Numbered from the stretch's first letter, positions 28,534 to 44,769 are shown. The stretch: DNA of 64,000 nt from an uncultured Actinomycetota bacterium (GCA_963735115.1 CAVTJR010000001.1:401958-465957), one strand, 5' to 3'. The notes: generated by a model not told the origin, from the sequence alone. A program made the numbers and translations.

Positions 28534-28580
28534 AACGGTGGGCCCGGCAGGGATCGAACCTGCGACCGAAGGATTATGAG
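28534..28580 (-). repeat. att copy B: 47-bp copy of a tRNA-Met 3' half
   Basis: Identical to 25864-25910. It differs from the intact tRNA at 44697-44769 only by a compensatory T-stem pair change and the trailer. Confidence 0.9.
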
Positions 28581-28598
28581 TGCCGTGGGGGCCATTTC

Positions 28599-28717
28599 GG
28601 TCACCAGCAGATTTTGACGTAAGTCCAGGTCACAGGCCATTTCTGAGTGACCGGTAGTGACCCCTAGAACCCCTCTGTGACCCACCGTTGGGTCACGTTT
28701 GGGTCACGCCGGGTCAC
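28599..28717. repeat. cluster of 8 GGTCAC/GTGACC motifs (candidate integrase arm-type sites)
   Basis: ...TCGGTCACC..CAGGTCACAGG..GAGTGACCGG..TAGTGACCCC..CTGTGACCCA..TTGGGTCACGTTTGGGTCACGCCGGGTCACGCG. The tandem TTGGGTCACGtTTGGGTCACGCC recurs at 44615-44637. Confidence 0.6.
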
Positions 28718-28794
28718 GCGGATGGTGTCCTCCTAGCCGTTGACAGCGCTGATGGCGTCACTCGCACTCTCCGAGCCCAGCTGGAAATGCTCGA

Positions 28795-29070
28795 TCATCT
28801 CCGGTACGCGTCACGCCGGTGGCGAATGGCGGCGACTTGAACCTCGCGGGCGTTGTCGTCGATGAGGTAGAGCACCCGATAGCTCCCCCTCCTCGCCGAC
28901 CAGGCGGGCGCGAGCGGAGGCGCTAGCGGCTTTCCAACCCGATGCGGGTTGTCCAGCAGAGGCCCGGTGATGAACGCGTAGACCGCCACGGCCACCGTCT
29001 CGGGCAATACCTCAGCAAGCGCTCGTGCGGCCGGCCGGGCGATCCGTAGCCGGTAGGGCTCGCCGCTCAC
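28795..29070 (-). CDS. RelE/ParE-family toxin
   Basis: 91 aa, ...RRGSYRVLYLIDDNAREVQVAAIRHRRDAY. It overlaps the upstream antitoxin stop. Confidence 0.8.
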   Translation of the reverse strand: MSGEPYRLRIARPAARALAEVLPETVAVAVYAFITGPLLDNPHRVGKPLAPPLAPAWSARRGSYRVLYLIDDNAREVQVAAIRHRRDAYRR

Positions 29071-29357
29071 TCAGCGGCGGGAAGACGGCCGGCGGCTCTC
29101 ATGACAGAGGTGAGTTCGTCTCTGTCGAGGCTGTCACTCTGGTTCAACGACTCGACACCCACTAGATGGTCACGTAGGAGATCGGCGTCGGCGAGCACGG
29201 CGATCGTCTCGCGTAGGGCGTCGTAGTCGTCGGCGCCGAGGAGCACGGCGACCCTCTGACCGTTCCGAGTGATCTCGAACCTCTCGTGGGTCGATGAGGC
29301 TTCCTCGACCAGCCTCGACAGCTGGGCCCGAGCCTCCGCTACGGGTAAGGTCGTCAT
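29067..29357 (-). CDS. Phd/YefM-family antitoxin
   Basis: MTTLPVAEARAQLSRLVEEASSTHERFEITRNGQRVAVLLGADDYDALRETIAVL. Confidence 0.85.
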   Translation of the reverse strand: MTTLPVAEARAQLSRLVEEASSTHERFEITRNGQRVAVLLGADDYDALRETIAVLADADLLRDHLVGVESLNQSDSLDRDELTSVMRAAGRLPAAE

Positions 29358-29502
29358 GTACAGAATTATAGCGCATCAGAGCTGACCACTGGCTGCTGAG
29401 CCCAGCCAAGACATGCGCAGCGAACAGCTAAACCGGCACTTCGGAATTGGCGGGGGCATGACGATCCACCAGCTCGCCTGAGCCCGCTGCCAGCGTTGGG
29501 CG

Positions 29503-30046
29503 ATGTCCGCCACACGCAAGCTCCCGGCCCGACTTGAGACCGACCCGGCGAAGGCTCTCGAGCTCCTCGTCGGACTGCCGGAGGTGAACGTGCTCGGCAT
29601 CTTCGTCGACAAGGCCCACACCGAGCTGCATGTCGAGACGCGAACCGAGACGGCGGGCTGTCCCGAGTGCGGTGTCGTGGCGAGGTTCAAGGGCTTCCGC
29701 GAGGTACTCCTCACCGACCTGCCTGCCTTCGCCAAGCCGACGAGGCTGCACTGGCACAAGCGGCGCTTCTCCTGTGTGGAGGCTGCCTGCCCAAAGGGGC
29801 ACGTCACCGAGGAGGATCGGCGCATCGCACCACCGCGCATGAAGCTCACCGACAGAGCCGGACGTGCCGCCACCAAGGAGGTGGGGTTCCACGGCCGCAC
29901 GGTCAACGAGGTGGCGACGAGCTTCGGCTGCGACTGGCACACCCTCAACGACGCCGTCATGGCATATGGGCGAGCACTCGTCGATGCGCCCGGCCGCTTC
30001 GGCGAAGTGGAGGCGATCGGTCTCGACGAGGTCGCCTTCGTACGGG
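29503..30046 (+). pseudogene. ISL3-family transposase, 5' fragment (split by IS21 insertion)
   Basis: zf-ISL3-like CPECG and ...KRRFSCVEAACP... The reading frame continues exactly at 36323 once one TACGGG copy is removed (..EVAFVR|AAPYGVTQFSTSIVDV..). Confidence 0.8.
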
Positions 30047-30052
30047 TGTCGA

Positions 30053-30148
30053 CCGTCACGTAATTCCCTCGCTTCTTCGATTCTCCGTCACGTAATTCCC
30101 TCGCTCGCCGTCACGTAATTCCCTGACGCCCCCGTCACGGAATTCCCT
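30053..30148 (+). repeat. IS21 left-end multiple terminal repeats (4 copies of CCGTCACG[TG]AATTCCCT)
   Basis: Copies at 30053, 30085, 30108 and 30132. Two inverted copies lie at the right end (36270-36286, 36294-36310). Multiple subterminal repeats are typical of IS21 ends. Confidence 0.85.
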
Positions 30149-30225
30149 CTGGCGGCGAGGGGACATCCACTCCTCCGGCGGCTGTCCGACCGAGGATTCC
30201 TCCCGTCGAGAGATCGGGAGGGGAG

Positions 30226-31788
30226 ATGGCAAGGAGAACGATGAAAGTGATCGACATCGTCGAGGTCCTCACGCACTGGCATGCCGGGCGGAGGATGGGC
30301 GAGCTCTGCTCGTCGCTCGGCATCGACCCGAAGACCGTGAGGAAGTACACCGCACCGGCCATGGCGGCGGGCATCTCGCCCGGCGGCCCGCCGCTGTCGC
30401 CAGACGAGTGGTCGCAGCTGGCGCGGGGCTGGTTCCCCGAGCTCACCGACGACTCGTCCCGCCAGACGACCTGGCCCGAGATCGAAGGACACGCCGAGCT
30501 GATCAAGTCCTGGCTCGGGCTCGTGACGATCTCGACCATCCATCAACGGCTCCGGGACGATCACGGCCTTGTCGCCTCGGAGTCCTCACTGCGGCGCTAC
30601 CTCGAGGCGAACATGCCCGAGGAGGTGAGACGCGCCCAGGTGACGGTGCTGAGAGAGACGCCTCCGCCCGGCGAAGAGGCACAGGTGGATTACGGCCTGC
30701 TCGGCCGCTGGGTCGACCCGGCCACGGGCAAGGTGCGCCGGGTGTGGGGTTTCATCATGGTGCTCGCCTTCAGCCGCCTCATGTTCGTGCGCCCGGTGCT
30801 GAAGATGGACTCCCGCAACTGGGTCGAGTGCCACGTCGCCGCCTTCGAGTTCCTCGGCGTCGCCCGCCGGATCGTGCCCGACAACCTGAAGACCGGAGTC
30901 GTCAAGCCTGATCTCTACGACCCGCTCATCAACAAGGCCTTCTCCGAGATGGCCGCCCACTACGACTGCCTCATCGACCCCGCCAGGGCTTTGAAGCCGA
31001 AGGACAAGGCACGCGTCGAGCGGCCGGTGCCCTATGTGCGGGACTCGTTCTTCGCCGGGCGATCCGCCGAGTTCGCCGACCTCGAGTCCATGCAGGCCGA
31101 TGCCCTTCGCTGGTGCCGGGCTGTCGGCAACCTGCGCCAGTGCCGGGGACTCGACCGGTTCTCGCCCCAGGCTGTCTACGACACCGAAGAGCGCGACGCC
31201 ATGACGGCCGTGCCCATGCTCCCCTTCGAGATCGCCTCCTGGTCGAAGGTCACGGTCAGGAACGACATCCACGTCAAGGTGGGAAAGGCCATCTACTCCA
31301 TGCCGTGGCGCCTCATCGGCCAACGCCTCGACGTCCGCGAGGGCTACCGGGTCGTCGAGGCCTATCTGGACGGCGTCCTCGTGAAGACCCATGCCCGCAT
31401 CGAGAAGGGCAAGCAGACCGACCCGGCGGACTATCCGCCCGAGAAGATCGCCTTCTCGATGCGATCCGCCGTCTGGTGCAAGAAGCGAGCCGAGGAGGCG
31501 GGCGCCAGTGTGGCGGCGGTGATCGCCGTGCTCTTCGAGGTGAACGCCCTCTACCGCCTCCGCCAGGCACAAGGGGTCATCCGCTTAGGCGAGCTGCACG
31601 GCAACGACCGCCTCGATGCCGCCTGTGCCCGCGCACTTGCCTTTGGTGACCCGAGCTACCGCACCATAAAGGGCATCCTTCGCGCCGGTCTCGAGAACGA
31701 CGGCGCCGATGCGCCACAGGTCCCGGAGGTGCCCGCCCACCTGCACGGGCCGCTCGCCCTGTTCGAGATCGAGGGGGCGGTGTCATGA
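30226..31788 (+). CDS. istA: IS21-family transposase IstA
   Basis: N-terminal HTH (IDIVEVLTHWHAGRRMGELCSSLGIDPKTVRKY), a DDE integrase core and typical length (520 aa). The stop overlaps the istB start. Confidence 0.9.
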   Translation: MARRTMKVIDIVEVLTHWHAGRRMGELCSSLGIDPKTVRKYTAPAMAAGISPGGPPLSPDEWSQLARGWFPELTDDSSRQTTWPEIEGHAELIKSWLGLVTISTIHQRLRDDHGLVASESSLRRYLEANMPEEVRRAQVTVLRETPPPGEEAQVDYGLLGRWVDPATGKVRRVWGFIMVLAFSRLMFVRPVLKMDSRNWVECHVAAFEFLGVARRIVPDNLKTGVVKPDLYDPLINKAFSEMAAHYDCLIDPARALKPKDKARVERPVPYVRDSFFAGRSAEFADLESMQADALRWCRAVGNLRQCRGLDRFSPQAVYDTEERDAMTAVPMLPFEIASWSKVTVRNDIHVKVGKAIYSMPWRLIGQRLDVREGYRVVEAYLDGVLVKTHARIEKGKQTDPADYPPEKIAFSMRSAVWCKKRAEEAGASVAAVIAVLFEVNALYRLRQAQGVIRLGELHGNDRLDAACARALAFGDPSYRTIKGILRAGLENDGADAPQVPEVPAHLHGPLALFEIEGAVS

Positions 31789-32288
31789 CGAGGCCGCACC
31801 AGATCGAAGAGAGCCTGAAGTCACTTCGCCTCTCGGGCATGCTCGAGACCCTCGATGCACGACTCGCCCAGGCCAAGGCGGGCGAACTCGGCCACCTCGA
31901 ACTCCTGCAGGTGCTCTGCGAGGACGAGATCGCACGGCGGGAAGCAGCCGGGCTCGCCAACCGCCTGGCCGCTGCCCGCTTCGAGAAGGCCTGCACCATC
32001 GAGGAGTTCGACTTCTCCTACAACACCAAGGTGCCGGTCGCCCAGATACGCGACCTCGCCACCCTCCGCTTTGTCGAATCGGGCGAGGGGGTGATCATCC
32101 ACGGGCCCGTCGGTGTCGGCAAGACCCACATCGCCCAGGCCCTCGGCCATGCCGCCTGTCGGCGGGGGCACCACGTCATCTTCACCAAGACCTCCCGCCT
32201 GCTCGCCGAGCTCGGCGGCGGCCATGCGGACCGGACTTGGGCCCAGCGCCTCCGGCGCCTCGCCAAGCCGGCTGTGCTGATCCTCGAC
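31785..32288 (+). pseudogene. istB: IS21 helper ATPase IstB, 5' fragment (split by RIT insertion)
   Basis: Walker A GPVGVGKTH. The frame ends at ..PAVLILD, where the RIT inverted repeat begins, and continues at 35692 (DFAMRDFT...). Confidence 0.85.
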
Positions 32289-32439
32289 TAATACCGAGGG
32301 CGAGATAACCCCGACGCGGGAGCGGCGACTCGCGGTCGGCGCTGCTCACGACACGTGGGCGGGCTGCGACACTCGGCATAATCCCACTCGGCCCTGAAGC
32401 CTTGTAGTTGGAGCGCTCTGCTCCGACAAAGGAGGAACG

Positions 32440-33651
32440 ATGGGCAAGGTTTCATGGACACGGGGCGATGGCCCCCTGGCGCCGTTCGCAGAGGGCTTCG
32501 AGTCGGAGCTCCGTCGGCTCGGCCACCCGCCGAGCGCCGCGAGGCATCACATGCACCTGATGGGCCAGCTGAACCGCTGGCTCACGGGCAAACACCTCGG
32601 TGTCGGCGATCTCAACCCCGTTGAGGCCGAGCTGTTCTTCTCATCACTCCGAGCCGCCGGCGTACAGCGAGTGCCGACGCTGGCCAGCTTGGTACCTCTG
32701 TTCGCTTTCCTCAGGCAACAGTGTGCAATTGCGCCGGTGGCGGCCCCAACACGGACACCACGGACGGAACTACTCGATCGCTATCGCCACCACTTGGTCA
32801 ACGACCGTGGCCTGACGCCGGTCACCGTGCGGCGCTACGACACCTTCGCCAGACGCTTCCTCGCGAACAGGGCAGCCGCGCGGGGTGCCGGGATCGGCAC
32901 CGAAGGGCTGTCAATCGCAGAGATCAACGGCTACCTGCTTGACACCTGCTCTCGGTTAGTCGTCGAATCGGCCAAGCGGGAAGCGGCTGACCTGCGTTCG
33001 CTGCTCCGCTTCCTGTACCTAGAGGGGCTCATTGAGACAGACCTCGGGCTCGCCATGGCGCCCGTGGCCACCTGGCGGGGTACCCGTCTGGTACCGACGC
33101 TGAGCGCTGCTGATGTCTCAGCGGTTCTGGCTTCCTGTGATCGTTCGACCGTGAGCGGCCGTCGTGACTACGCGATCTTGATTCTCCTGGCCAGGCTGGG
33201 GCTCCGCTCCGGAGAGGTGGCCGCATTGAGGCTCGCTGACGTTGACTGGCGCGCCGGTCAGCTGCTCGTGCGAGGAAAGGCACGGCGCCAGGATGTGCTC
33301 CCGCTGCCGGTCGAGGTAGGAGAGGCACTGGTGGCCTACTTGGAAGCCGGCCGCCCGTCGTCTCAGTACCCAGAGGTCATACTCACGCTCTACGCACCGC
33401 CGCGCCCGATCCGACCATCCTCGATCACCAACGTCGTCTACCACGCCAGCCAACGAGCTGGGCTCGCTCGCGTTGGTGGGCACCGCCTCCGTCATGCGCT
33501 CGCCAGCGAAATGCTGCGCCAGGGTGGGAACCTGATCGAGATCGCCCAGGCTCTTCGGCAGTCGGATCTCGCCACGACCTCGGGATACGCCAAGGTCGAC
33601 CGCGAAGCCCTGCGGGCGGTCGCTCAGCCGTGGCCGGGAGAAGGCCGATGA
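32440..33651 (+). CDS. tyrosine recombinase, RIT subunit A-like
   Basis: 403 aa. Catalytic region ...GLRSGEVAALRL...HRLRHALASEMLRQGGNLIEIAQALRQSDLATTSGYAKV. Confidence 0.85.
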   Translation: MGKVSWTRGDGPLAPFAEGFESELRRLGHPPSAARHHMHLMGQLNRWLTGKHLGVGDLNPVEAELFFSSLRAAGVQRVPTLASLVPLFAFLRQQCAIAPVAAPTRTPRTELLDRYRHHLVNDRGLTPVTVRRYDTFARRFLANRAAARGAGIGTEGLSIAEINGYLLDTCSRLVVESAKREAADLRSLLRFLYLEGLIETDLGLAMAPVATWRGTRLVPTLSAADVSAVLASCDRSTVSGRRDYAILILLARLGLRSGEVAALRLADVDWRAGQLLVRGKARRQDVLPLPVEVGEALVAYLEAGRPSSQYPEVILTLYAPPRPIRPSSITNVVYHASQRAGLARVGGHRLRHALASEMLRQGGNLIEIAQALRQSDLATTSGYAKVDREALRAVAQPWPGEGR

Positions 33652-34568
33652 CCGAGTTCGCCGTGAGAGCACAGGAATACCTGCGCCTGCGCCGATCGCT
33701 CGGGCACGAACTCGATGACGCCGTTCGCCTCCTTCCCCGCTTCGTCGCCCACCTGGAAGCGATAGGCGCTCCGGCGATCACGACTGAGATCGGGCTCCAG
33801 TGGGCACAGCGCCCTGACGCCGATCCCGCCAGTTCGATCTGGCTGCGACGCATGACGGTTGTCCGAGGCTTCGCCCACTACATGTCGGGCATCGACCCGA
33901 GGACCGAGGTGCCGCCACTCGGGCTGGTGACCTTCCGCCCGCGCTGGCGGCCGCCGTTCATCTACTCCGAGGACGACGTCGTAGCGCTGATGAACGAAGT
34001 CCCACGAGTCGTCCCAACGCCCTTTCGGGCTCTCACGCTCCAAACAATGATCGGCTTGCTGGCTGCGACCGGCATGCGGATCGGCGAGGCCATCGGCTTG
34101 TCGCGGTCCGACGTCGATTGGTCCGACGGCGTCGTGATCGTGCGGGAATCGAAGTTCAACAAGTCAAGAGAGATACCACTGGCCCCGAGCTCGGTAGCCG
34201 CGCTCCGGGTTTACGCCGAGGTGCGTGACGGGAACGTGCCCGAGCCCGGGAGTCCAGCCTTTTTCATCTCGGGTCGCGGAACTCCCGTCATATATGGGGT
34301 CTTCGGCGACATCTTCCGCCGGCTGCTGGCGGCCTCGCGAGTCGGCGAGGACTCGCCGGTTCGGCCGCGGGTTCATGATCTGCGACATTCTTTCGCTGTC
34401 CACACCCTCGTCCGATGGTATCGAGCAGGAGAAGATGTCGGCGCTCTCCTGCCACGACTCTCCACCTACATGGGGCACATCGAGGTGCGGTACACCTATT
34501 GGTACCTCTCGGCTGCCCCGGAGCTGTTGGCTCTAGCGGCCGACCGCCTTGAAAGGGGCGAGAGATGA
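33648..34568 (+). CDS. tyrosine recombinase, RIT subunit B-like
   Basis: ATGA overlap with the upstream gene. GMRIGEAIGL...VHDLRHSFAVHTL...LSTYMGHIEVRYTYWYL. Confidence 0.85.
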   Translation: MTEFAVRAQEYLRLRRSLGHELDDAVRLLPRFVAHLEAIGAPAITTEIGLQWAQRPDADPASSIWLRRMTVVRGFAHYMSGIDPRTEVPPLGLVTFRPRWRPPFIYSEDDVVALMNEVPRVVPTPFRALTLQTMIGLLAATGMRIGEAIGLSRSDVDWSDGVVIVRESKFNKSREIPLAPSSVAALRVYAEVRDGNVPEPGSPAFFISGRGTPVIYGVFGDIFRRLLAASRVGEDSPVRPRVHDLRHSFAVHTLVRWYRAGEDVGALLPRLSTYMGHIEVRYTYWYLSAAPELLALAADRLERGER

Positions 34569-35554
34569 GTTCGGTCGCGCCCACCATGCAGATGTTCTTC
34601 ACCGATCGACTCGCCAAGCAGCGCCAGGTGAGCCCAGCCACTGTGAAGTCCTATCGGAACACCTTCGTGCTCCTGCTGCGCTTTGTGCACGGCCAGACGG
34701 GAAAGGCGCCGTCCACGCTCGACTGGTCGGACCTCGGGGCGGGTGTCATCTCGGACTTCTTGGACCATCTCGAGCACGACAGGCACAACAGCGCCCGCAG
34801 TCGGAACACTCGCCTTGCCGCAGTGCGATCGCTGTTCCGGTATGCGGCACTTCGACATCCCGAGCACGCACACCTGATCCAGCAGGTGCTTGCCATACCG
34901 CAGAAGCGTTACGACCGGACACTGGTTCCCTTTCTGGAGCCGGGCGAGGTCGCCGCGTTGCTTGCCGCTCCGGACCGCAGCCGGTGGGAGGGTCGACGTG
35001 ACCATGCACTGATCTGCTTCGCCGTGCAGACCGGGCTGCGTCTCTCCGAGCTCACAGGCGCCAAGTGTGGCGACATCGAGCTAGGGACTGGGGCGCATGT
35101 GCGCTGCATCGGAAAGGGGCGTAAGGAACGCTGTGTCCCGCTGACTTCAGACACCATCGCCGTCCTGCAGGTCTGGCTACAGGAGCGGGGCGGGCTTCGC
35201 GACGAACCGCTATTCCCGACTCGAACGGGACGTCGCCTCAGCGACGACGCAGTTGAGGCTCGTCTCGGTGTCCACAAACAGACGGCCGCCCGCCTTCTCC
35301 CTTCGATTGGTGCGAAGAAGCTGACGCCGCACGTACTGCGCCACACCTGCGCCATGAACCTCCTTCGAAGCGGCGTCGAGGTCGTTGTCATCAGCCTCTG
35401 GCTTGGCCACGCAGATATCCGTTCCACCCATTGCTATTTGCACGCCGACATGAGCATCAAGGAACGGGCGTTGGCCCGAGCGGCGCCAACCTCATCGAAG
35501 CCGGGACGCTACAAGGCGCCGGACAAGTTGCTCGCCTTCTTGGAGAGTCTGTGA
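34565..35554 (+). CDS. tyrosine recombinase, RIT subunit C-like
   Basis: ATGA overlap. GLRLSELTGAKCGDI...PHVLRHTCAMNLLRSGVEVVVISLWLGHADIRSTHCYLH. Confidence 0.85.
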   Translation: MSSVAPTMQMFFTDRLAKQRQVSPATVKSYRNTFVLLLRFVHGQTGKAPSTLDWSDLGAGVISDFLDHLEHDRHNSARSRNTRLAAVRSLFRYAALRHPEHAHLIQQVLAIPQKRYDRTLVPFLEPGEVAALLAAPDRSRWEGRRDHALICFAVQTGLRLSELTGAKCGDIELGTGAHVRCIGKGRKERCVPLTSDTIAVLQVWLQERGGLRDEPLFPTRTGRRLSDDAVEARLGVHKQTAARLLPSIGAKKLTPHVLRHTCAMNLLRSGVEVVVISLWLGHADIRSTHCYLHADMSIKERALARAAPTSSKPGRYKAPDKLLAFLESL

Positions 35555-35691
35555 TAATCCCGACGGCTTAAGTGTCCCAGCACTGCCGGGCGCCACCGAG
35601 CACTCGGGGCCAGTAGGCCCAACCCTCCGACTATCGGGGTTATCCCGCCCTCGGTATTAGTCGAGTAAACCCGAAGTCGGCTTTACTCGAC

Positions 35692-35934
35692 GATTTCGCC
35701 ATGCGGGACTTCACCGTCGCCCAGGCCGACGACCTCTACGAGCTTGTGACCGAGAGAGCCGGCAAGGCGACGATCTTTACGGCCAACAGGATGGGCCAGG
35801 ACTGGTACGGGCTGTTCCCGAACCCCGTCGTGGCCGAGTCGATCCTCGACCGCATCGTCAACACCGCCCATCACGTCCATATGGACGGCAAGTCCTACCG
35901 ACCGAAGAACCGGCCGAATCGAGCAGGATCGTGA
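35692..35934 (+). pseudogene. istB: IstB, 3' fragment
   Basis: DFAMRDFTVAQADDLYELVTERAGKATIFTANR...WYGLFPNPVVAESILDRIVNTAHHVHMDGKSYR is the conserved IstB C-terminus. Confidence 0.85.
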
Positions 35935-36248
35935 GACGGACCTGCGCGGCAAAGGGGTGCGAGAACGAAGTGCCGCCGAGGAACGGGCGCTTCGGGCGCA
36001 ACCCGATCTACTGCTCGCCCTCGTGTCGAAAGGTCCCGCCGGCGAATCTCCCCGTCGCCGTCGAGATCGCCCACGAGCCGACTGACGATGCTCGTCCCGC
36101 CGGCCGCATCTTCTCGGTGAAGCTCAGCCGCGGCGACAAGACCGTGACGGTCGCCGAGGGACTCGGACGCCCCTCGGCCGAGCACCTCGCCGGTGAGATC
36201 CTCTCGATCCTGGCACCGTCGCGACCGAGAGGAGGAACGATCAGCTAG
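35931..36248 (+). CDS. small Cys-rich (zinc-ribbon-like) protein inside IS21, downstream of istB
   Basis: GTG overlaps the istB stop (GTGA). CAAKGCENEV...IYCSPSC. It ends about 20 bp before the right-end repeats. Confidence 0.4.
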   Translation: MRRTCAAKGCENEVPPRNGRFGRNPIYCSPSCRKVPPANLPVAVEIAHEPTDDARPAGRIFSVKLSRGDKTVTVAEGLGRPSAEHLAGEILSILAPSRPRGGTIS

Positions 36249-36322
36249 ACATGAGTTGCACGCCGGATGAGGGAATTACTTGACGGAATCGTCAGGGAAT
36301 TACGTGACGGTTGACATACGGG

Positions 36323-36770: not shown

Positions 36771-37249
36771 TCAACGGGGTTTGCTGTCAACAGCAGTTCG
36801 TTCGGAAATAGGCCGCTACACCTATCAATAGACGTTCAGATTGGTGTGTTTGTAAGATTGTATGAGCAGTTCCGGGGCTCCGGAGCCTCGACCACAGTCA
36901 TGTTCCGGTGACCACCCGAGGTCGCTCGGCAGATGACGCCAACTTTCCGTTACGTCCATCGACGCCACCGTCTGCGCGCACTCAGCCATCAGGCCTTGCA
37001 CGATCCAAGCCGGGTATTCCGCTAGTCCGCGTCTGGGCGCATGCAAACACGCCAAGCTCACCTCCAGCACGTCGAGCCATAACCCTGTCCGCGGCCCCGA
37101 GCGAGCTACAACCGCGGACCGTCAACGGCAGACTAGCGGCGAAGGCTCACGAGCTCCTTGACGCGCCGTTCGCTTGCGCGTACACTCCCAGCGTGAGGCG
37201 GACTGGGATGGTCGGTAAGTAACGGTCTTTATGATCTCCCAGGCGCTTA

Positions 37250-38056
37250 ATGTGCCACTTTCCTCTGCGGTACTCTTGCTCTGGGAAGCTGGGCGAAAGT
37301 CTCAATGTCGGTCAGAACACAGGCAGCTTGTTCGTTGGAATCATTGGTTCACTTACGGCTCCAGGTCCCTCGCAAGTTGATACTTCAGATGATCAGGCGC
37401 TGCTGCTTTGGCTTGGAATGGAAGAGTATTCCACTCCTACGGGTTACTACTGTGACTTGGATGGCGAGCTTACCCATTACTGCTGGACCCAGGTAGGCCT
37501 AGCAATGGGCACGTTCGGAGATCCGTATTGCCCAGGCAATCCGCGGACCACGACTTCGGACACGAGCTACGAGGTCTACTTCGAACGGTACGATATCAAC
37601 GGTTGCGCGGACGTGCTGAGCACTGTCGACATTGATACGAGCGACGCTGTTCCATTTCAAGACAACTGGACAGGCGAGTATATCGATGGAGGCTACCAAT
37701 ACGAATCTCAGGTTGTCGACAGCTCTGACCACTACGTTGAAATCGGCACTGGTGACCTCTACTACCTCGACATTCACGCGGAAGCACAGGCAGAGATTCA
37801 CACTGGGAGCGATACAACCTGTCCCACGCTAACCGGTGGCTCGCCGTATCAGCACTTCGGCGATCAAGTCGATGGTAGCTGGGATGGTGGATCCGCCAAA
37901 CTTCAGGTCGAGAACTCCTCGACCGATACATTCAGTCCGTGGTCGACTGCTGATGGACCCAGTGCTCCCTTCTCGGATAGCCCCTATTGGGTAACTGAAG
38001 GAGGTCATTGGCCAGCTGATTTCCAAACTAACGGCCCAGGGGGTGGACCCCCGTGA
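37250..38056 (+). CDS. low-GC acidic Cys/Tyr/Asp-rich protein, unknown function
   Basis: 268-aa ORF with no recognisable motif. The start is uncertain. Its stop overlaps the next gene's start, which suggests an operon. Confidence 0.45.
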   Translation: MCHFPLRYSCSGKLGESLNVGQNTGSLFVGIIGSLTAPGPSQVDTSDDQALLLWLGMEEYSTPTGYYCDLDGELTHYCWTQVGLAMGTFGDPYCPGNPRTTTSDTSYEVYFERYDINGCADVLSTVDIDTSDAVPFQDNWTGEYIDGGYQYESQVVDSSDHYVEIGTGDLYYLDIHAEAQAEIHTGSDTTCPTLTGGSPYQHFGDQVDGSWDGGSAKLQVENSSTDTFSPWSTADGPSAPFSDSPYWVTEGGHWPADFQTNGPGGGPP

Positions 38057-39327
38057 TTCGAGTTGGATCACCGGACAGGGAGAGGCGTAATAGGCTAGCA
38101 ATTCTGGGTATCGTCTGCCTTTGCGCCGTGACGCTGTCCGCATGTGGAAGAGGGATCGAAACGAGCAACGGTCATTCCCGCATTAGCAAACCACCCAACC
38201 AAGCTGCGTACCGCTATCTCACTCGGTCAACAGTTGTGCCAGCCAACGGACCTTCTTGGTTGCTCCCAGCCGGATTCAGCACTTTGCAGAGCCTGACCGG
38301 TGACCCGAACGGAACTGGCGCCTGGTTCTGGGACAGTACCTCCAACGAAGACGTGATTTTCAACTCAAGCGCAGGCAATATCTCAGAGTGGCCTGTGCTA
38401 TCGGGTAGCAACTTTCAGCAGAGCGAACAGGCGGGCGGGTTGGCAGTCGACCCGCAAGGCAACGTTTGGTTGGCTATTAACCTGACGCTCATCGAGTTGG
38501 ACCCGGCGACGGGAGCCACGGAGACTTGGACAATTCCCACTCCGAGTGCAAATCTCGCGGCTGCTAGCTTCGAACCGTCGGGCGCGGCTGAGATCGCAGT
38601 GACCGGCTTGGCGGCGAGCCCTTTGGGGACGATCGCCATATTGACCAGTAATTCGAGCACAGTTGAGGTATTCGACCCTCGATCGTCCGAATTCGACAGC
38701 ATCTCAATGCCGACCGATGACGACCTTCCGACCGCTGCGGCGTTCTCAGGAGACGGGACCTTGTGCATTGGCTTCTCAGCAGTCGAGGAAGGCACGGGCG
38801 GTACTGCTTCCAACCTGATGATCCTGAGCCCTAATGGTCAAGCCGCAACTTACTCACTTCTCACACCGGGATCAGCCTGGGACATCGCCCCCTTAGGATC
38901 GTCGAGCTTTGTCGTCGGAGATGAATCGCCTGAGTTGGCGACCACTTCTGGAACTATCACGAGCATCAATTCACCGAGTGCCTTGGTGGGAAGCGGGCAG
39001 CCAATGACGCCCCTTGTCGTCGCAGGCGGCGACGTCCTAGTCGGACACGCTCAAGGTGGACTGGTTGCGTTTCCCGACGATGCAAGTTCTGTTGCCCAAG
39101 CTACAGAGGAGTCGACGTTCATTCCGTCGGCCCAGGTTTGCGGCCCCAGCGGAGACGCTCCCGGTCCGGGCACGTCCACCGAGGGGACAGTCTGTGGCGC
39201 GCCTGGATATTTTGATGTCGTTGCCGACGGCGATGGAGACCTCTGGACCGTCGGAAGCGGCGGCGTCTCCGAGGTACCGCCTCAAACGGTTAGCGCTGCC
39301 ATCACGAGGGCCACTAACAGGGCCTGA
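38053..39327 (+). CDS. low-GC lipoprotein, beta-propeller-like repeats, unknown function
   Basis: Lipobox LAILGIVCLCAVTLSAC. Repeated ...G..WF/WL..., ...DPQGNVWLA..., ...DGDLWTV... strands resemble NHL/Vgb-lyase-type propellers. Confidence 0.6.
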   Translation: MIRVGSPDRERRNRLAILGIVCLCAVTLSACGRGIETSNGHSRISKPPNQAAYRYLTRSTVVPANGPSWLLPAGFSTLQSLTGDPNGTGAWFWDSTSNEDVIFNSSAGNISEWPVLSGSNFQQSEQAGGLAVDPQGNVWLAINLTLIELDPATGATETWTIPTPSANLAAASFEPSGAAEIAVTGLAASPLGTIAILTSNSSTVEVFDPRSSEFDSISMPTDDDLPTAAAFSGDGTLCIGFSAVEEGTGGTASNLMILSPNGQAATYSLLTPGSAWDIAPLGSSSFVVGDESPELATTSGTITSINSPSALVGSGQPMTPLVVAGGDVLVGHAQGGLVAFPDDASSVAQATEESTFIPSAQVCGPSGDAPGPGTSTEGTVCGAPGYFDVVADGDGDLWTVGSGGVSEVPPQTVSAAITRATNRA

Positions 39328-39573
39328 CGGATACGGACCCCCTTCACCAGCGGCTGGGCTCGGATGCCGAACCTTGCATGTGACCGTCGAGAACCCTCCC
39401 GCATCGCAGGCGACGAAGTTGCCCACATCCCGCCGCGGCACCGTCGTCGCACAACTGCCAGCCGTCGGGCACAAGTAACTCCGTGGACTGCCGTCGTCCT
39501 TCGAGTGGATGACCCCGCCGGCCAGGGGTCAGTTCCCCGCTGACGATTCTGCACAGCGCAGCCTGAGAAACGG

Positions 39574-42500
39574 CTACAGCCCCGGGCCGAGCTGCGGCCG
39601 CGGCGGCTCGTGATGGGGTGTCGGATCGGGGCGTCGTAGCTGGCGGTTCCCAGCGGGTACGGGTTGGGGAGCTGACCTTCTTCGGATGCCGTCGAGTCGG
39701 TCCCGGTGGGCATCGAGGCCGGCAGCTAGTCCATCGGCGGTCCGACATAGATCCCACGTTCGCTCGCGCGAGAGGCGGGAACGAGCCTCCTGGCGCTCCA
39801 GGCGGGCGGCGAGCCGCTCGACGTCTCCTCGGTGGCGAGCGATCTCGGCGTCGAGACGGGCGGCTTCGGGGACGACGTGAGTCTGCGAGCGCTGCTCGGC
39901 GTCCTTCGCCCGCTCGGCCCAGCTGCCTGCTTCTCTGTTGGCCACACGGCGTTCGCGCCAACGACTCGCGTGCTCTGCTCGCCAGCGTGCCGAGGCCATC
40001 CCAACTGTGGCCTCGGCAAGATCGACGACGGCGCTGCCGGCCTCGGAGTACGCGTAGCTGCCCGAACCTGTGTCCAGATCGGCCCTGGCCTGCTGGGCTT
40101 GGCCCAAGGCAGCTTGAGCCTCGCCGAGGGCCGGGGCGAGATCGGGCGGTCTGATCCTCGCATTGGCCTGGGCGACGATCGTGGTCTCGGCGTGGACGAT
40201 GGCGGCGATCTGGAACTTTTGCTCGTCGCCCATACCGGCGACGGCCTCGGCGGTGAGCTTCTCGTGATCGAGCAGACCGGTGTCGATGGCCCAGGTTGGC
40301 GTGCGCTGCGTCGACCAGTCACGTCTCAGGTCCTCGGCGGCCTGGGCGAGACCGTCGGCAACGGTCCAGGCGTGTGAGGATTCGCGACCGCGGCTCATGG
40401 CCACGTAGGCGAGCTCGCGTCCCTCGCCGTCGGCGAAGAGGTGGGCTCGGGTCACCGTGGCGCCTTGACTGCGGTGAACCGTTGTGGCGTATCCGTAGCC
40501 GAGGCGTTCGGCGCCGGCCTGCTCGCCGGTGAGCCGGACCTCTCGGCCGTCGCTCGTGCGGAGATCGATCGCTCCGGTGGCTGGATGAACGGCATGCACG
40601 ACGGCCCGCTCGGAGGTGACGAGTCTGCCGCCCGGGCCTGGGGCGAGGGTGACCACTTCGTCGCCGGCGCGGTAGGCGTTGCCGCCGGGGCAGACGAGCT
40701 CGGGGCCGGAGAGGCGGGCCGTTGCGTCCATCCAGCTCCTCGCCCGTTCGTTGAGCTCGGAGACGTTCGCCCGTCGCCAGGCGTAGAGGCCGACGTCGTG
40801 CCCCGCTGCGACATCGGCGCTCCAGGCGTCCACGGCTGCCTGCAAGGCTGTTCCTCTATCGGCTTCGGCGTGGATGCGCTCGCGCTCGACATAGAACGAG
40901 ATCGCCTCGGCCACCTCGCCGTCGCGAAGTGCCGCCAGAGCTTGGCGCTCCTCGGGGTCGTGCTGGCGTCGGTTCTCGCTGAGATGATGGACGGCATCCG
41001 GGTGGCGGGATACCAGTGCGCCGAGGGCGCCGCCGGGGCCGACCGGCCCGATCTGATGGTGGTCGCCGACGAGGATCAACTTGGCGCCGGCCGCTTCCAC
41101 ATGGGCTGCCAGGCGGACGAGGTCGACGTCGTCGGTCATCCCCACCTCGTCGAGGATGACGGCCGTTCGTTCGCTGAGGCTGAGTTGATGGTGGTCGAGT
41201 CGCCAGATCAAGCTGGCGAGGGTGCGCGACTCGCCGATCTCGGCTTCGCTCGACAGGGTGCGAGCGGCCTGGCCCGAGGTGGCGGTGCCGAGCACCTGGT
41301 AGCCGGCCTCGGTGAAGGCGGCCGCCACCACCTTCAACATCGTCGTCTTGCCGGCGCCGGCGACTCCCTCGACGAGCTCGGCGCCTCGACCGGAGGTGCA
41401 GATGGCCACGGCCGCCGAGCGCTGCTCCTCCGAGAGCTCGGCCCCGAGGCTCGCCTCGGCCTCGTCGATAGCCGCCTCCGCCTCGACCTCGGTGACCGCC
41501 GGGGCGTCATCGCGTGCGAGTTGGCGCTGCAGGCTCTCGGCGATGGCCGTCTCGCGGGCAAGTACCGAGGCGAGGGAGTACACCTGCTCTCTGGCGCCGC
41601 TCACCCCGACGAGGGGGACGCACTCGGGATCGGCGAGGGCGCGGTCGACGAAGGCGTCGAGGAGGGCCGGTCCCCGCCCGTAGAGGTGGGGAGCAAGGAC
41701 GACGACCACGTGTCGCCGGGAGAACACCTTGCGGCGGGCAAGCTCGCCGTCGTGTCCGAGGACCTCGGACAGGAGCCGGCGGCCATCCTTGGGCGTCAGC
41801 GACCGAACCTCGTCCCGGGCGGCCTCGACCGATGCCAGCAGCCGCTCGACCGGCCAGCCGGCAGCTTCGAGCTCGGCGCGCCAGCGGTCCACCAGCTCCC
41901 TCTCTGCCTCGTGCTCCTTGGAGGACCGGGTGGTGCGGGCGGCGATGCCTCGGGCGCGATAGGACGTCGCGCCGCGGCGCTGGCACTCGGCCTCGATCTC
42001 GGCTGCGCGCTTCGAGTGCAGTGCGAGGACCTCGTCGGGGATGCCGGCGATCCGCCAGTGTCCGAGTTTCCCGGACGGACCCGGATCGGCTTCGATCCCA
42101 TAACCCAGCCCGACGGCTACGCGGGCAGAGGCCACCCGCCCCACCATGGTGGCGGCATGCAGGTGCTCTCGCCACAAGGTCGTGTCGGCTGCCTTCCAGC
42201 CGCCACGGTCGTCCCGCATCTCGACGAGATTGCCCACAAGGACGTGATCGTGCGGGCTGGGATCGCCTGCCCGCGAGGTGGCGTGACGGGTGTGGGCGTA
42301 GATGAGCCCTCCCGTCTGGCTCGCCGTTGCGGCTCTCCCTCGCCGGCCGCCCATCTGACGGGTGACCCGGTCGAGATAGGCCAGGGTGGCGTCTCGCTCG
42401 GCGTCCATGATGGCGTGCATGTCCTCGGCTCGGCCGATCACGCCCAGCTCTGCGACGCTCTTGTGGCCCGAGATGACGAGCTCCATGCCCGGACGGCGGG

Positions 42501-42807
42501 TGGCCACCAGCCGATCCAACGTGGCGGGATGCCGGGCACCACCCGCCCCGAAGACTGCTTCGTAGGACTCGGGCGATACCGACTCGGACAGACCGAGCGA
42601 CATCGCGCCAGAGCCGCCCCACACGAGCGGAGTCTCGCCCCGAGAGGCGTAGTACTGAAGTGCCATGCCGGGAAAGTCGTCGGCGCGTTCGAGCACCGTG
42701 GCCCGGTGGTACTCCACCGACTCGGCCCCCATCATCCGCATCCACGCCACTGCTCTGTCACCACTTCCGTACGACGGTCCGGCCTTTGGCAACCTCAAAG
42801 GTTGCAA
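39574..42807 (-). CDS. MobF-family relaxase/helicase (TrwC/TraA-like)
   Basis: N-terminal TrwC relaxase domain (YYASRGETPLVWGGSGA, histidine cluster HTRHATSRAGDPSPHDHVLVGN). C-terminal RecD-like helicase (Walker A GVAGAGKTT, DEVGM, ...ATTVHRSQGATV). The true start may be M23 (42741). Confidence 0.9.
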   Translation of the reverse strand: MQPLRLPKAGPSYGSGDRAVAWMRMMGAESVEYHRATVLERADDFPGMALQYYASRGETPLVWGGSGAMSLGLSESVSPESYEAVFGAGGARHPATLDRLVATRRPGMELVISGHKSVAELGVIGRAEDMHAIMDAERDATLAYLDRVTRQMGGRRGRAATASQTGGLIYAHTRHATSRAGDPSPHDHVLVGNLVEMRDDRGGWKAADTTLWREHLHAATMVGRVASARVAVGLGYGIEADPGPSGKLGHWRIAGIPDEVLALHSKRAAEIEAECQRRGATSYRARGIAARTTRSSKEHEAERELVDRWRAELEAAGWPVERLLASVEAARDEVRSLTPKDGRRLLSEVLGHDGELARRKVFSRRHVVVVLAPHLYGRGPALLDAFVDRALADPECVPLVGVSGAREQVYSLASVLARETAIAESLQRQLARDDAPAVTEVEAEAAIDEAEASLGAELSEEQRSAAVAICTSGRGAELVEGVAGAGKTTMLKVVAAAFTEAGYQVLGTATSGQAARTLSSEAEIGESRTLASLIWRLDHHQLSLSERTAVILDEVGMTDDVDLVRLAAHVEAAGAKLILVGDHHQIGPVGPGGALGALVSRHPDAVHHLSENRRQHDPEERQALAALRDGEVAEAISFYVERERIHAEADRGTALQAAVDAWSADVAAGHDVGLYAWRRANVSELNERARSWMDATARLSGPELVCPGGNAYRAGDEVVTLAPGPGGRLVTSERAVVHAVHPATGAIDLRTSDGREVRLTGEQAGAERLGYGYATTVHRSQGATVTRAHLFADGEGRELAYVAMSRGRESSHAWTVADGLAQAAEDLRRDWSTQRTPTWAIDTGLLDHEKLTAEAVAGMGDEQKFQIAAIVHAETTIVAQANARIRPPDLAPALGEAQAALGQAQQARADLDTGSGSYAYSEAGSAVVDLAEATVGMASARWRAEHASRWRERRVANREAGSWAERAKDAEQRSQTHVVPEAARLDAEIARHRGDVERLAARLERQEARSRLSRERTWDLCRTADGLAAGLDAHRDRLDGIRRRSAPQPVPAGNRQLRRPDPTPHHEPPRPQLGPGL
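42789..42805. promoter_or_regulatory. inverted repeat GCAACCT-caa-AGGTTGC just upstream of (or in the first codons of) the relaxase gene; oriT-type hairpin candidate
   Basis: Perfect 7-bp arms with a 3-nt loop, positioned next to the relaxase start. Confidence 0.3.
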
Positions 42808-42839
42808 TCGTGTTCTGCTCTAGTTGGGTATATAGGAGC

Positions 42840-42950
42840 TGGTGAGGGATGTAAAGGGGTTGATTTGTGAGCGGTAAGTAGCGGTGAGTAATGGTAAATG
42901 ATGGTGAGGAAGAAGTGGTGGGATTGGTGATGGCGGGTGGCTGCTGGGGC
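42840..42950 (+). repeat. C-depleted G/T/A-rich tract with phased GGTRA repeats
   Basis: Only 3 C in about 110 nt on the + strand. GGTAA/GGTGA occurs at 42873, 42883, 42893 and 42903 (exact 10-bp phase), with further copies at 42841, 42917 and 42926. Confidence 0.7.
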
Positions 42951-43138
42951 TGGGGCAGTGAGCAAGGAGCTGAGCCGGTCGCGCAGATAGCTTGGATGTG
43001 CCATCGCGCAGTAATTGTAGGACCGAGGCGACTGACGGCTCCTGCCGGGCCGCCATCGGTCCATATGTGGAGCGGCACACGGTCATGCGTCAGAGCCGTC
43101 GGGCAGCGGCGGACAAACCGTCATCAAAGGAGTCAGCC

Positions 43139-43342
43139 ATGACCGCGCCAGACCCGCTTCCTCACCTCCTCACCATCGACGAGCTCGCCGACCACCTCGG
43201 CGTGAATGTCCGCCACATCCGCCGGCTCATCGCCGAACGCCGCGTGCCGTACTTCAAGGTCGGTCGACTGATTCGCTTCGACCCGGCCGACGTGGCCAGC
43301 TGGCTCGCTCGGACTCGGGTCGATGGGCACCGCAGCGCCTGA
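43139..43342 (+). CDS. xis: excisionase-family HTH DNA-binding protein
   Basis: AAAGGAG plus the ATG at 43139. LLTIDELADHLGVNVRHIRRLIAERRVPYFKVGRLIRFDPADVASWL is a typical Xis/MerR-type winged HTH upstream of int. Confidence 0.85.
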   Translation: MTAPDPLPHLLTIDELADHLGVNVRHIRRLIAERRVPYFKVGRLIRFDPADVASWLARTRVDGHRSA

Positions 43343-43449
43343 CCGGCTGACACAGCCGCGGACTACGGTGGTGCCCACATCGCAGACCTCTCACGACGGT
43401 CAGCCCGTAGCAACCAGTCCTCACAGCACTACGCACGGGAGGTATCTCC

Positions 43450-44673
43450 ATGGGTCGCCGCCTCTCCGGATCGGTTGACCGACTGCCCTCCGGCCGTTGG
43501 AGAGCTCGCTACCGCGGGCCCGACGGTCACCGCCATACCAGTGGGTTTCGAACGAAGGCAGATGCCGACGCGTGGCTGGCGGCCCAGCAGACTGATCGCC
43601 GGCGCGGCGCATGGATGGATCCGAGGCTTGGACAAATCACCATCGCCGATTGGGCCGGCGCATGGATGCAGACAACGGTGCACCTGCGTCCCTCGACCCG
43701 TGCGGGGTACGAGGGCAAGCTGCGAGCCCACGTGTTGCCGCGGTTGGGCGGCGTTCCGGTCATCAGCCTCGACACGCCGGCGATTCGCCGCTTCGTGGCC
43801 GAGATGGCCGCCGACGGGGTCAGCCCTGCGACCATCCTCGGCGTGCGAGCCGTGCTTCGGCTGCTGCTCGGGACGGCGGTCGAGGCCGGCGCCATCGTCG
43901 TCAATCCCTGCGCTGGCATCAAGGTGCAACGACCGAAACGCCTGGAGATGCACTTCCTCACGGCCGACCAAGTAGAGGACCTGGCCGAGACCATTGCCGT
44001 CCCCGCGCCCAAGACCGCCGGCCATGGCGCCGGACCACACTGGCGCACCGATCTCCCGGAGTACGGGCTATTGATCCGGTTCGCCGCCTACACCGGTCTC
44101 AGGGCGGGCGAGATCGGCGCCCTGCGGGTCGGGAGGCTCGACTTCCTCCGCTCCACCGTGGAAGTCGCAGAATCGGCGACCGAGGTCAACGGCCAGCTCG
44201 TCTACGGGCCAACCAAGAACTATCACCGGCGTGCCGTGCCGCTCCCTCCGTTCCTTAGGGACGACCTCGCCGCTCTCCTCCGGACCCGACCGCACGATCC
44301 GGACAGCTTCGTCTTCGCCGCACCTGAGGGTGGTCCGCTGCGGCACAACAACTTCTACCGCCGCCACTTCAAGCCCGCAGTGCTGCAAGCGGGCCTCCCG
44401 GCGGATTTGCGGTTTCATGACCTCAGACATTCCTTTACGGGATTCCTCATCGCTCAGGGAGCCCACCCGAGGGCGATCATGGAGCGACTCGGGCACTCCT
44501 CGATCCAGGTCACACTCGGCACCTACGGCCACCTCCTGCCGGGCATCGACGAGCGCCTCACAGTCGGTCTCGACGACCTCGGACGAGCCGCTCGCGCCGC
44601 CTCATCCGATTCCCGTGGGTCACGCTTGGGTCACGCCCCCGTGACGACCCTGCCGGTGGCTTCACATAAATAG
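43450..44673 (+). CDS. int: tyrosine-type site-specific integrase
   Basis: N-terminal arm-binding/SAM-like domains. Catalytic GLRAGEIGALR...FHDLRHSFTGFLIAQGAHPRAIMERLGHSSIQVTLGTYGH. The stop lies 24 bp from the tRNA 3' end. Confidence 0.95.
   Translation: MGRRLSGSVDRLPSGRWRARYRGPDGHRHTSGFRTKADADAWLAAQQTDRRRGAWMDPRLGQITIADWAGAWMQTTVHLRPSTRAGYEGKLRAHVLPRLGGVPVISLDTPAIRRFVAEMAADGVSPATILGVRAVLRLLLGTAVEAGAIVVNPCAGIKVQRPKRLEMHFLTADQVEDLAETIAVPAPKTAGHGAGPHWRTDLPEYGLLIRFAAYTGLRAGEIGALRVGRLDFLRSTVEVAESATEVNGQLVYGPTKNYHRRAVPLPPFLRDDLAALLRTRPHDPDSFVFAAPEGGPLRHNNFYRRHFKPAVLQAGLPADLRFHDLRHSFTGFLIAQGAHPRAIMERLGHSSIQVTLGTYGHLLPGIDERLTVGLDDLGRAARAASSDSRGSRLGHAPVTTLPVASHK
44615..44637 (+). repeat. tandem TGGGTCACG motif inside the int 3' end (partner 28688-28710)
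   Basis: GTGGGTCACGCTTGGGTCACGCC versus TTGGGTCACGTTTGGGTCACGCC at the opposite end of the element, in the same orientation. Confidence 0.6.
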
Positions 44674-44696
44674 CCACTGAACTGGGCTTTATTGCG

Positions 44697-44769
44697 TGGG
44701 CCCGGTGGGGATCGAACCCACGACCGAAGGATTATGAGTCCTCTGCTCTAACCACTGAGCTACGGGCCC
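44697..44769 (-). tRNA. tRNA-Met (CAT) (elongator type; Ile2-lysidine type cannot be excluded)
   Basis: Reverse complement GGGCCCG-TA-GCTC-AGTGGTTA-GAGC-A-GAGGA-CTCATAA-TCCTT-CGGTC-GTGGG-TTCGATC-CCCAC-CGGGCCC-A forms a full cloverleaf. Confidence 0.9.

Follow-up and report, generated by a model that had tools for sequence, protein, structure and literature searches.

Which kind of mobile element occupies a tRNA-Met gene of an uncultured Actinomycetota bacterium, and by what route might it reach other cells? We addressed these questions by computational analysis of a 64,000-nt stretch of its genome (GCA_963735115.1, CAVTJR010000001.1:401958-465957), hereafter called the window, which has a G+C content of about 67%. 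The segment 28538-44769 is very likely an integrative mobilizable element (IME) whose site-specific insertion lies in the 3' half of the tRNA-Met gene. This island of ~16 kb carries its own integrase, excisionase and MobF relaxase, together with a candidate origin of transfer (oriT). Its backbone is small, i.e., the distal arm, a ParE/Phd pair, a MobF relaxase-helicase, the oriT, the excisionase, the integrase and the proximal arm, and the remainder is passenger DNA. The element is probably of a familiar kind, namely a canonical IME, and its host group is probably Acidimicrobiia.

The element lies between two copies of a tRNA half

The window contains three copies of the 3' half of tRNA-Met, and the element spans the interval from one displaced copy (copy B) to the intact tRNA gene (Table 1). 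Copy B has four mismatches to the 3' 44 nt of the tRNA, its last 23 nt on the anticodon side being identical and its T-stem differing through compensating changes. The second displaced half (copy A; 25868-25911) has five mismatches, and no further copies were detected in the window even with 12 mismatches permitted. In a chance control, 0 shuffles reached three matches to the core pattern. The recombinase gene at 43450-44673 and the 44-nt repeat at 28538-28581 and 44696-44739 supply the attachment (att) features expected of a canonical IME.

The T-stem of the functional tRNA reads GTGGGG/CCCAC and that of copies A and B reads GCAGGG/CCTGC. This difference fits with an element of outside origin whose own half restored the tRNA gene. 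A preliminary description of this DNA had called the element the youngest unit at the site, which is a reasonable label: the unit is intact, tRNA-proximal and has a T-stem unlike those of the two older copies. It had also described xis and int as pointing at the tRNA, which they do; the int stop is indeed close to the tRNA, with the stop codon ending 22 bp before the tRNA 3' end rather than at the 24 bp reported.

Two other units were observed next to the element. Left of copy A (25343-25867), the minus strand encodes a truncated integrase N-terminus from a different family, which has its own tandem repeat (TGCTCCGCGATC twice, ~25759-25785) followed by 44 nt with homology to the arm end that is integrase-proximal in the element type studied here; these remains point to an earlier occupant of the site that has since degraded. 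Between copies A and B (25912-28537) are a Phd-like antitoxin domain and a CorA Mg2+ transporter. This unit lacks an integrase and GGTCAC arm sites, and may be either an integrase-less remnant or a cis-mobilizable unit.

Repeats at both ends resemble arm-type integrase sites

Eight GGTCAC/GTGACC sites are clustered in 119 bp just inside copy B, in agreement with the earlier count of eight within 120 bp. Those on the plus strand are at 28599, 28628, 28691, 28702 and 28712 and those on the minus strand at 28647, 28657 and 28677. The motif occurs 77 times in the whole window, and its density is ~67 per kb in the array compared to ~1 per kb elsewhere; the Poisson estimate for at least eight sites in any 119-bp stretch is ~1e-12 per stretch. 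Densities in related loci are 0.7-1.3 per kb, and hence the motif is not common elsewhere at the density seen in the array. The tandem form, TGGGTCACG[T/C]TTGGGTCACGCC (22 nt, as TGGGTCACGYTTGGGTCACGCC), has exactly two occurrences in the window (28689-28710 and 44616-44637), each on the plus strand, and was absent from shuffles. The distal pair lies 108-130 bp inside copy B. The earlier observation that the tandem recurs in the same orientation within int was therefore correct, except that the first right-end unit reads GTGGGTCACG and not TTGGGTCACG.

Comparison with related loci shows that such pairs are a recurrent feature. A scan of one genome per species retrieved 80 loci encoding integrases of 33-70% identity, nearly all from metagenome-assembled genomes of Acidimicrobiia. 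In about 30 of these loci, the integrase reads toward a tRNA gene 100-150 bp off (Arg, Met, Thr, Ala, Pro, Val, Lys, Gly and others), and in essentially all of them an 11-bp-period tandem direct repeat is located 55-80 bp from the tRNA 3' end. The motif of the pair varies by integrase subfamily, i.e., GGTCACG (ten loci), CT[A/G]CACG, CGCGGCCTG, TGTGGTGCA, TATTGCACG, CGCGTCCA and TGCGACCC. The first 70 residues of the integrase vary with the motif class rather than with overall relatedness; for example, the integrases of L073 and L075, both associated with GGTCACG, are 54% identical in this region and 33% identical overall.

Four to five independent elements also contain the same pair at the far end. 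Locus L049 has TGTGCCAT at 6022/6033 and 10937/10948 (only four copies in 20.9 kb), L052 has CGCGTCCA at 742/753 and 11070/11081 (no other pair occurrences in the locus), and L075 has GGTCAC at 3790/3801 in addition to its integrase-proximal arm. The far-end pairs of these three loci share the same orientation and are positioned 98-134 bp inside the far att copy, and the distal arm of L075 repeats the order found in the window (forward, inverted and degenerate, forward tandem). L041 has four copies of CGCGGCCTG in total, at 184/195 and 6248/6259; a far att copy was looked for there and none was detected. Repeats that are unlike the core in sequence are thus present on both sides of the core, an arrangement replicated with other motifs in L041, L049, L052 and L075. 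Because the tandem pairs recur at fixed positions, the motif tracks the integrase N-terminal domain and the structural model described below has an arm-binding-like fold, the interpretation of the GGTCACG repeats as arm-type integrase sites, already put forward in the preliminary description, is strongly supported by the comparative and modelling data. A scan of viral contigs for the tandem motif returned mostly unrelated contigs; only L167 had two pairs beside a distant integrase.

Between the arm pair and the core lies a conserved box, which is found 5-8 bp outside the tRNA 3' end in most of the loci L001-L078, regardless of tRNA or arm motif, and also left of all three att copies in the window. 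We would guess that it may be a site for excisionase (Xis) or a host factor. In mycobacteriophage L5, Xis binds between the arm pair and the core, a position that corresponds to that of the box. A further set of repeats was observed in L002 (11110-11376), where an integrase of 66% identity adjoins tRNA-Met: about seven copies of a second motif, CTCCGGTT, precede the GGTCAC pair between int and the tRNA, and could be a second set of protein-binding repeats.

Integrase structure and position of strand exchange

The catalytic residues R218, K256, H323, R326, H349 and Y359 of the integrase are invariant in a 65-sequence alignment. In an AlphaFold2 (AF2) model based on 65 homologues (mean predicted local distance difference test score, pLDDT, of 88), strands at residues 7-11, 17-22 and 28-33 are followed by a helix at residues 36-52, and this N-terminal sheet and helix (residues 7-52) have pLDDT values of 87-96. 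Full-length lambda Int aligns to the model over 376 columns, compared to ~300 for lambda Int 75-356, which lacks the arm-binding domain. Relatives of the integrase carry the family PF26003 (Integrase_N_phage). The model therefore predicts an N-terminal arm-binding domain similar to that of lambda Int.

The position of strand exchange can be narrowed down using close relatives. As the preliminary description had proposed, the element and its att arms were sought in other genomes; among the relatives found are L161-L163, with a 91% identical integrase and 83% DNA identity over 4.86 kb. This integrase is the same protein in all three loci, with the element joined to a whole tRNA-Met in L163 and to a half-tRNA followed by a homologue of the copy A flank in L161 and L162. 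Occurrence of the same element at a whole tRNA-Met and at a leftover half-tRNA indicates that a secondary att site from an earlier event was used, as in tandem accretion. Across L161-L163, the T-stem variant goes together with the element, whichever context it is in, and the final repeat base (T or G) with the target; exchange must therefore take place within CGACCGAAGGATTATGAG, an 18-nt segment on the side of the anticodon stem-loop. The copy-A-like joint was compared between L161 4893-5121 (also L162 and L163) and window 25824-26048. No terminal overlap, a sign of a circular contig, was found in L161.

The relaxase is accompanied by a conserved candidate oriT

The relaxase could be aligned to the relaxase domains of F TraI and R388 TrwC. 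It retains the histidine triad (H..ATSR...PHDH, compared to H-x-DTSR...HTH in F TraI), the tyrosine motifs VEYH and QYY, and all helicase motifs. The preliminary description had reported a TrwC-type relaxase/helicase of 1077 aa; the type is confirmed, and the length is probably 1055 aa from ATG 42741 (1077 aa from TTG 42807). With relatives of 1058-1080 aa and the tyrosines, histidine triad and helicase motifs kept, the protein appears to be full-length and intact. The closest plasmid relaxases in PLSDB are at most 30% identical.

A metagenome scan retrieved 80 loci encoding relaxases of 50-87% identity. The same module, relaxase, oriT and xis-int, then a tRNA where the contig reaches that far, is present in L081, L082, L089, L093, L120, L123, L135 and L148. 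The integrases of these modules are 29-59% identical, indicating that integration modules have been swapped.

Upstream of the relaxase start and on the opposite strand, relatives of the relaxase have a stem-loop followed by AATCGTGTTC or a near-match, L086 and L087 being the sole exceptions among the loci with enough sequence. An exact copy of the 14-mer TTGCAATCGTGTTC was found in 58 of the 80 loci, once in each and always upstream of the relaxase. Stems were analyzed sequence by sequence with a shuffle control, since alignment with MAFFT and RNAalifold misaligned stems of unequal length and returned only four pairs. Of 40 distinct sequences, 38 have a stem of at least 6 bp that terminates precisely at the box, compared to 2.75% of shuffles. 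The first four pairs of the stem (GCAA/TTGC) hardly vary, and pairs 5-7 alternate between C-G, G-C and T-A (15/21, 20/18 and 4/13/12 sequences), i.e., they covary. In the nick regions of R388 and F, an inverted repeat lies directly 5' of a conserved single-stranded segment containing TGT. Taken together, 42789-42815 is likely to be the oriT of this relaxase, with a predicted plus-strand nick near 42813-42815. In silico, the element hence has its own relaxase with a putative cognate oriT, as expected of a canonical IME.

The relaxase-xis intergenic region is 400 bp long and contains, between oriT and xis, four GGTRAR repeats. These are kept as ...ACC repeats in relaxase relatives, with the short blocks CTTTAC and ATA nearer the nick box, and are possibly sites for a regulator or an accessory factor. 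No match was obtained when 42600-44800 was scanned for sigma-70 promoters and terminators.

Two variations on the module were observed among the relatives. In L005 (11230-17386), a 71% identical relaxase is located across a tRNA-Arg, together with the same divergent HTH_17 gene; the adjoining integrase is unrelated (27% identical) and differently oriented, and a PIN-type toxin module lies between the HTH_17 gene and the relaxase. In L096 (4913-7996) and five similar loci, which represent a relaxase clade of 56-59% identity, the relaxase is followed by a 1028-aa primase-like protein with a CHC2 zinc finger and Toprim domain.

The element encodes no recognizable mating machinery

Genes for a type IV coupling protein (T4CP), VirB4, FtsK/TraB or Rep were found neither among the element proteins (Pfam, PHROGs, NCBIfam and PADLOC) nor among the main open reading frames (ORFs) of the window (Pfam). 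Four profile libraries thus bear out the earlier statement that the element has no coupling protein, FtsK-like translocase or replication gene, and the sensitive search that had been recommended for its unassigned ORFs likewise matched no transfer function (PHROGs, NCBIfam and PADLOC). Two classes of self-transmissible element were rejected on these grounds. An integrative conjugative element of actinomycetes (AICE) was rejected since the element lacks both an FtsK-like Tra and a Rep, no ORF matching PF01580 (FtsK/SpoIIIE-type Tra) or a Rep family (RepSA, Prim-Pol). An integrative and conjugative element (ICE) with a type IV secretion system (T4SS) was rejected since neither the element nor the 64-kb window contains a VirD4-like or VirB4-like gene.

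The surroundings of the relatives give a similar picture. The 43 ORFs beside close relatives matched 45 Pfam families, and the 25 most frequent of these include no transfer family, consisting instead of regulators, ABC transporters, toxin-antitoxin components and similar. Across the 80 loci of the relaxase relatives, a Walker A motif was found in one of 33 clusters of large ORFs (at least 380 aa), and that cluster is EF-G. As no transfer family appeared among these matches in the flanks of relatives and the same module recurs, the minimal backbone seems to be the norm rather than the outcome of decay in this copy. No far-end att copies were found within the fetched flanks of the relaxase-relative loci L085-L135, and complete close relatives were therefore not delimited.

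Alternative interpretations

It is unlikely that the element is an immobile remnant of a self-transmissible T4SS-type ICE or AICE whose mating genes were taken by an insertion sequence (IS)-mediated deletion. Such a history would agree with the ISL3 copy that is cut at ~36755, adjoining a foreign low-GC block, with cargo that has nothing in common with that of relatives, and with the older degraded units next door. However, neither about 80 relaxase relatives nor their flanks yielded a T4CP, VirB4 or FtsK gene, the closest relatives share the minimal relaxase-xis-int module, and in this copy no damage is seen in the integrase, xis, relaxase, oriT box or either arm. We also give little credence to a more radical proposal, in which the relaxase clade (50-87% identical, ~80 loci, sharing a single 14-nt oriT box that is almost invariant) is never linked to a coupling protein or pore and conjugates by the relaxase alone through a chromosomal translocase or secretion system. 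If this were true, these elements would move without a dedicated T4SS and not merely by piracy of a conjugative helper.

Two further alternatives reassign the functions of individual parts. The relaxase might chiefly act, like NicK of ICEBs1, as a rolling-circle replication initiator by which the excised circle is maintained, with the hairpin and box serving as a replication origin. Relaxases can serve also as replication initiators (PMC3218068), the element has no separate Rep gene, and in one related clade the gene after the relaxase encodes a primase-like protein; yet the protein is a genuine member of MobF, a family of conjugation, with a TraA-type helicase domain, and a replicative role would be compatible with transfer, both roles coexisting in known elements. 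We therefore regard a chiefly replicative relaxase as quite improbable. Least credible is the idea that the GGTCAC arrays are not integrase arms but serve another protein, such as Xis, the toxin-antitoxin pair or a Rep, as operators or iterons. The distal arm does go beyond the usual tandem pair of relatives, with eight sites in both orientations, some of which could be Xis sites. Nevertheless, the array is placed downstream of the ParE stop codon, away from the toxin-antitoxin promoter, a Rep gene is missing, the motif covaries with the integrase N-terminal domain while excisionases stay similar, and the positions are fixed relative to the core across unrelated cargo. A toxin-antitoxin operator or iterons were accordingly rejected on the basis of position and covariation with the integrase.

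Some points weigh against the interpretation of this locus as a mobilizable element with a lambda-type integrase. The match of the integrase to the Pfam family Arm-DNA-bind_4 is sub-threshold (E = 0.012; 15.7 bits compared to 22.3). A helper conjugative element is absent from the window and none is known for the lineage. It could be that this copy has lost a conserved gene from the interval separating its distal arm and relaxase. The interior has been struck by at least three insertions and one truncation, and this copy of the element may therefore be decaying. The proteins orf268, orf424, orf104 and the IS21 orf105 carry no assigned function. Finally, binding by the proteins, the site of the nick, dependence on a helper and present-day activity are properties that we infer from sequence.

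Proposed mechanism of excision and transfer

The anatomy, conservation, covariation and protein domain content described above are direct observations, and a model for the movement of the IME can be proposed on their basis. The integrase would be heterobivalent, with its N-terminal domain binding the GGTCACG sites, namely two in tandem on the integrase side and, on the far side, three in tandem together with five more, and its core-binding and catalytic domains acting at the anticodon stem-loop part of the half-tRNA. Strands would be exchanged within the 18-nt segment (44721-44738), and the 67-aa excisionase would help to release a circle of 16.1 kb in which the tandem pairs stand ~230 bp apart around the core. 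The relaxase would then bind the hairpin (42789-42805) and nick the plus strand in or just past AATCGTGTTC, and the strand would be exported via the coupling protein and mating pore of another conjugative element. With a plus-strand nick, a recipient would receive xis and int at the start of transfer and the relaxase gene at its end. There, the element would re-integrate into tRNA-Met, with the gene being rebuilt from the half-tRNA of the element.

Gene content and passenger DNA

The features of the element are listed in Table 1. Junk DNA, namely the nest of insertions described below, next to which is a low-GC cargo block, accounts for about 45% of the element. The preliminary description had mentioned neither the nest nor the cargo block, nor the candidate oriT. 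The toxin-antitoxin genes had been described as a RelE/Phd pair; the Phd assignment holds and the toxin is instead of ParE type according to PF05016.

Table 1. Features of the element and its attachment sites (window coordinates).
Feature	Position	Strand	Remarks
att copy B, displaced tRNA-Met 3' half, core of the integrase-distal junction	28538-28581	no strand	40/44 nt match 44696-44739
Integrase-distal arm, eight GGTCAC sites	28599-28717	plus	order 2 forward, 3 inverted, 3 forward
Distal tandem sites, putatively arm-type	28689-28718	plus	TGGGTCACG x2, 11-bp period, then third unit CGGGTCACG at 28710
ParE-family toxin	28795-29070	minus	PF05016, E 1e-6
Phd/YefM antitoxin	29067-29357	minus	PF02604, E 3e-18
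ISL3 transposase, 5' part	29503-30046	plus	Zn_ribbon_ISL3; broken by IS21
IS21-family element	30047-36316	plus	multiple terminal repeats and TACGGG target duplication
istA of IS21	30226-31788	plus	
istB of IS21, split	31785-32288 and about 35693-35934	plus	
RIT-like 3.4-kb insertion	32289-35692	plus	50-nt terminal inverted repeats; inside istB Walker B codons
Three tandem tyrosine recombinases of the RIT-like unit	32440-33651, 33630-34568, 34565-35554	plus	
ISL3 transposase, middle part	36317-36755	plus	DDE_Tnp_ISL3 profile positions 16-140 of 240
Low-GC (56-58%) cargo block	36756-39400	plus	no transfer-related family matched
orf268	37250-38056	plus	acidic, 268 aa
orf424	38053-39327	plus	lipoprotein signal, weak beta-propeller match (Pfam)
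MobF relaxase fused to SF1B helicase	39574-42741	minus	NF041492, 142.4 bits (cut-off 100); TrwC and AAA_30 domains
Candidate oriT	42789-42815	plus	hairpin GCAACCT-caa-AGGTTGC, then AATCGTGTTC
Four GGTRAR repeats	42867-42909	plus	~10-11-bp period; between oriT and xis
Excisionase (recombination directionality factor), 67 aa	43139-43342	plus	ATG 43139; HTH_17; TIGR01764, 49.7 bits (cut-off 28.8)
Tyrosine integrase, 407 codons	43450-44673	plus	N-terminal arm-binding-like, core-binding and catalytic domains
Integrase-proximal pair, putatively arm-type	44616-44637	plus	in non-conserved C-terminal tail of integrase ORF; 59-80 bp from tRNA 3' end
Conserved box between arm pair and core	44674-44695	plus	consensus CYCTGACCWGSnCTTTTA; nearly all integrase-family loci
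tRNA-Met(CAT)	44696-44769	minus	3' 44 nt (44696-44739) are the integrase-proximal att core

The interior contains a three-level nest at 29503-36755, in which a RIT-like unit is inserted in an IS21 element that is itself inserted in a truncated ISL3 element; this nested ISL3::IS21::RIT part comprises ~7.3 kb. Excision of the RIT-like unit in silico yields an intact IstB of 248 aa, and excision of IS21 yields a continuous ISL3 reading frame, which ends near 36755 where the G+C content falls to 56-58%. The IS21 element has a third small ORF after istB (orf105; 35931-36248), encoding 105 aa with a cysteine-rich N-terminus and no family match. The two proteins of the low-GC block are both probably secreted; orf268 and orf424 matched no family in PHROGs, NCBIfam or PADLOC, and Pfam gave only the weak match of orf424. 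In the chromosomal flank (55407-56670), a BglII-like restriction endonuclease adjoins an MT-A70 methyltransferase.

Relationship to known systems and implications

The integration module has counterparts in well-studied systems. The AICEs pSAM2 and pACPL likewise have xis-int reading toward the 3' end of a tRNA, an identity segment of ~43-44 nt and tandem direct repeats on both sides; the layout had been called pSAM2-like in advance, and the module can indeed be considered pSAM2-like or lambda-like. The arm repeats of pACPL, GTCACCCAG-TTA-GTTACCCAG, are said to resemble the pSAM2 repeats bound by integrase (PMC3364876). These sites (GTCACCCAG) resemble the reverse complement of the motif found here (GTGACCCA; full repeat CGTGACCCA). 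However, pSAM2 and pACPL encode an FtsK-like Tra and RepSA and transfer double-stranded DNA, whereas the present element has neither gene and carries a MobF relaxase and candidate oriT instead. With lambda Int and L5 Int, the integrase shares three domains, including the N-terminal three strands and helix, arm sites on both sides and a small excisionase. It differs from lambda Int in being only ~18% identical, in its target at a tRNA anticodon stem-loop and in that its DNA binding is a prediction.

On the transfer side, the relaxase shares with R388 TrwC and F TraI the two N-terminal tyrosine motifs, the histidine triad and fusion to an SF1B helicase. A hairpin 5' of a TGT-containing predicted nick region is also shared, and the relaxase gene would be the last to enter the recipient in each case. 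Unlike in R388 and F, no TrwA/TraY-type accessory gene or TrwB adjoins the relaxase here, and the box AATCGTGTTC is specific to this clade. The MOBF IMEs of Mesorhizobium (traACD type) are found at tRNA genes including tRNA-Met, have a recombination directionality factor linked to the relaxase and lack a mating pore (PMC8627217). The present element shares all of these traits, i.e., the tRNA site, the MOBF relaxase, the linked directionality factor and the lack of a mating pore. In contrast, the Mesorhizobium IMEs are from Alphaproteobacteria and have the accessory factors TraC and TraD, whereas this element is high-GC and actinobacterial, with only the HTH_17 excisionase beside the relaxase.

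With canonical IMEs in general, the element shares possession of its own integrase and its own canonical relaxase, and the lack of genes for a coupling protein or mating pair formation. Toxin-antitoxin modules are common in canonical IMEs, and the 2017 review by Guedon et al. lists no MobF canonical IME and a single actinobacterial IME (ATE-1, MobV) (PMC5704250); the MOBF IMEs of Mesorhizobium were reported later. Our literature search returned nothing on relaxases or IMEs in Acidimicrobiia.

For the integrase family, which is large in Acidimicrobiia, these results provide a predicted map of the phage-type attachment site (attP), comprising the arm pairs, the crossover region and the conserved box. 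The hairpin and TTGCAATCGTGTTC would constitute an oriT signature usable to find such islands and their helpers in soil and peat metagenomes. The results also show MobF relaxase-only islands to be common in a little-studied class of actinobacteria.

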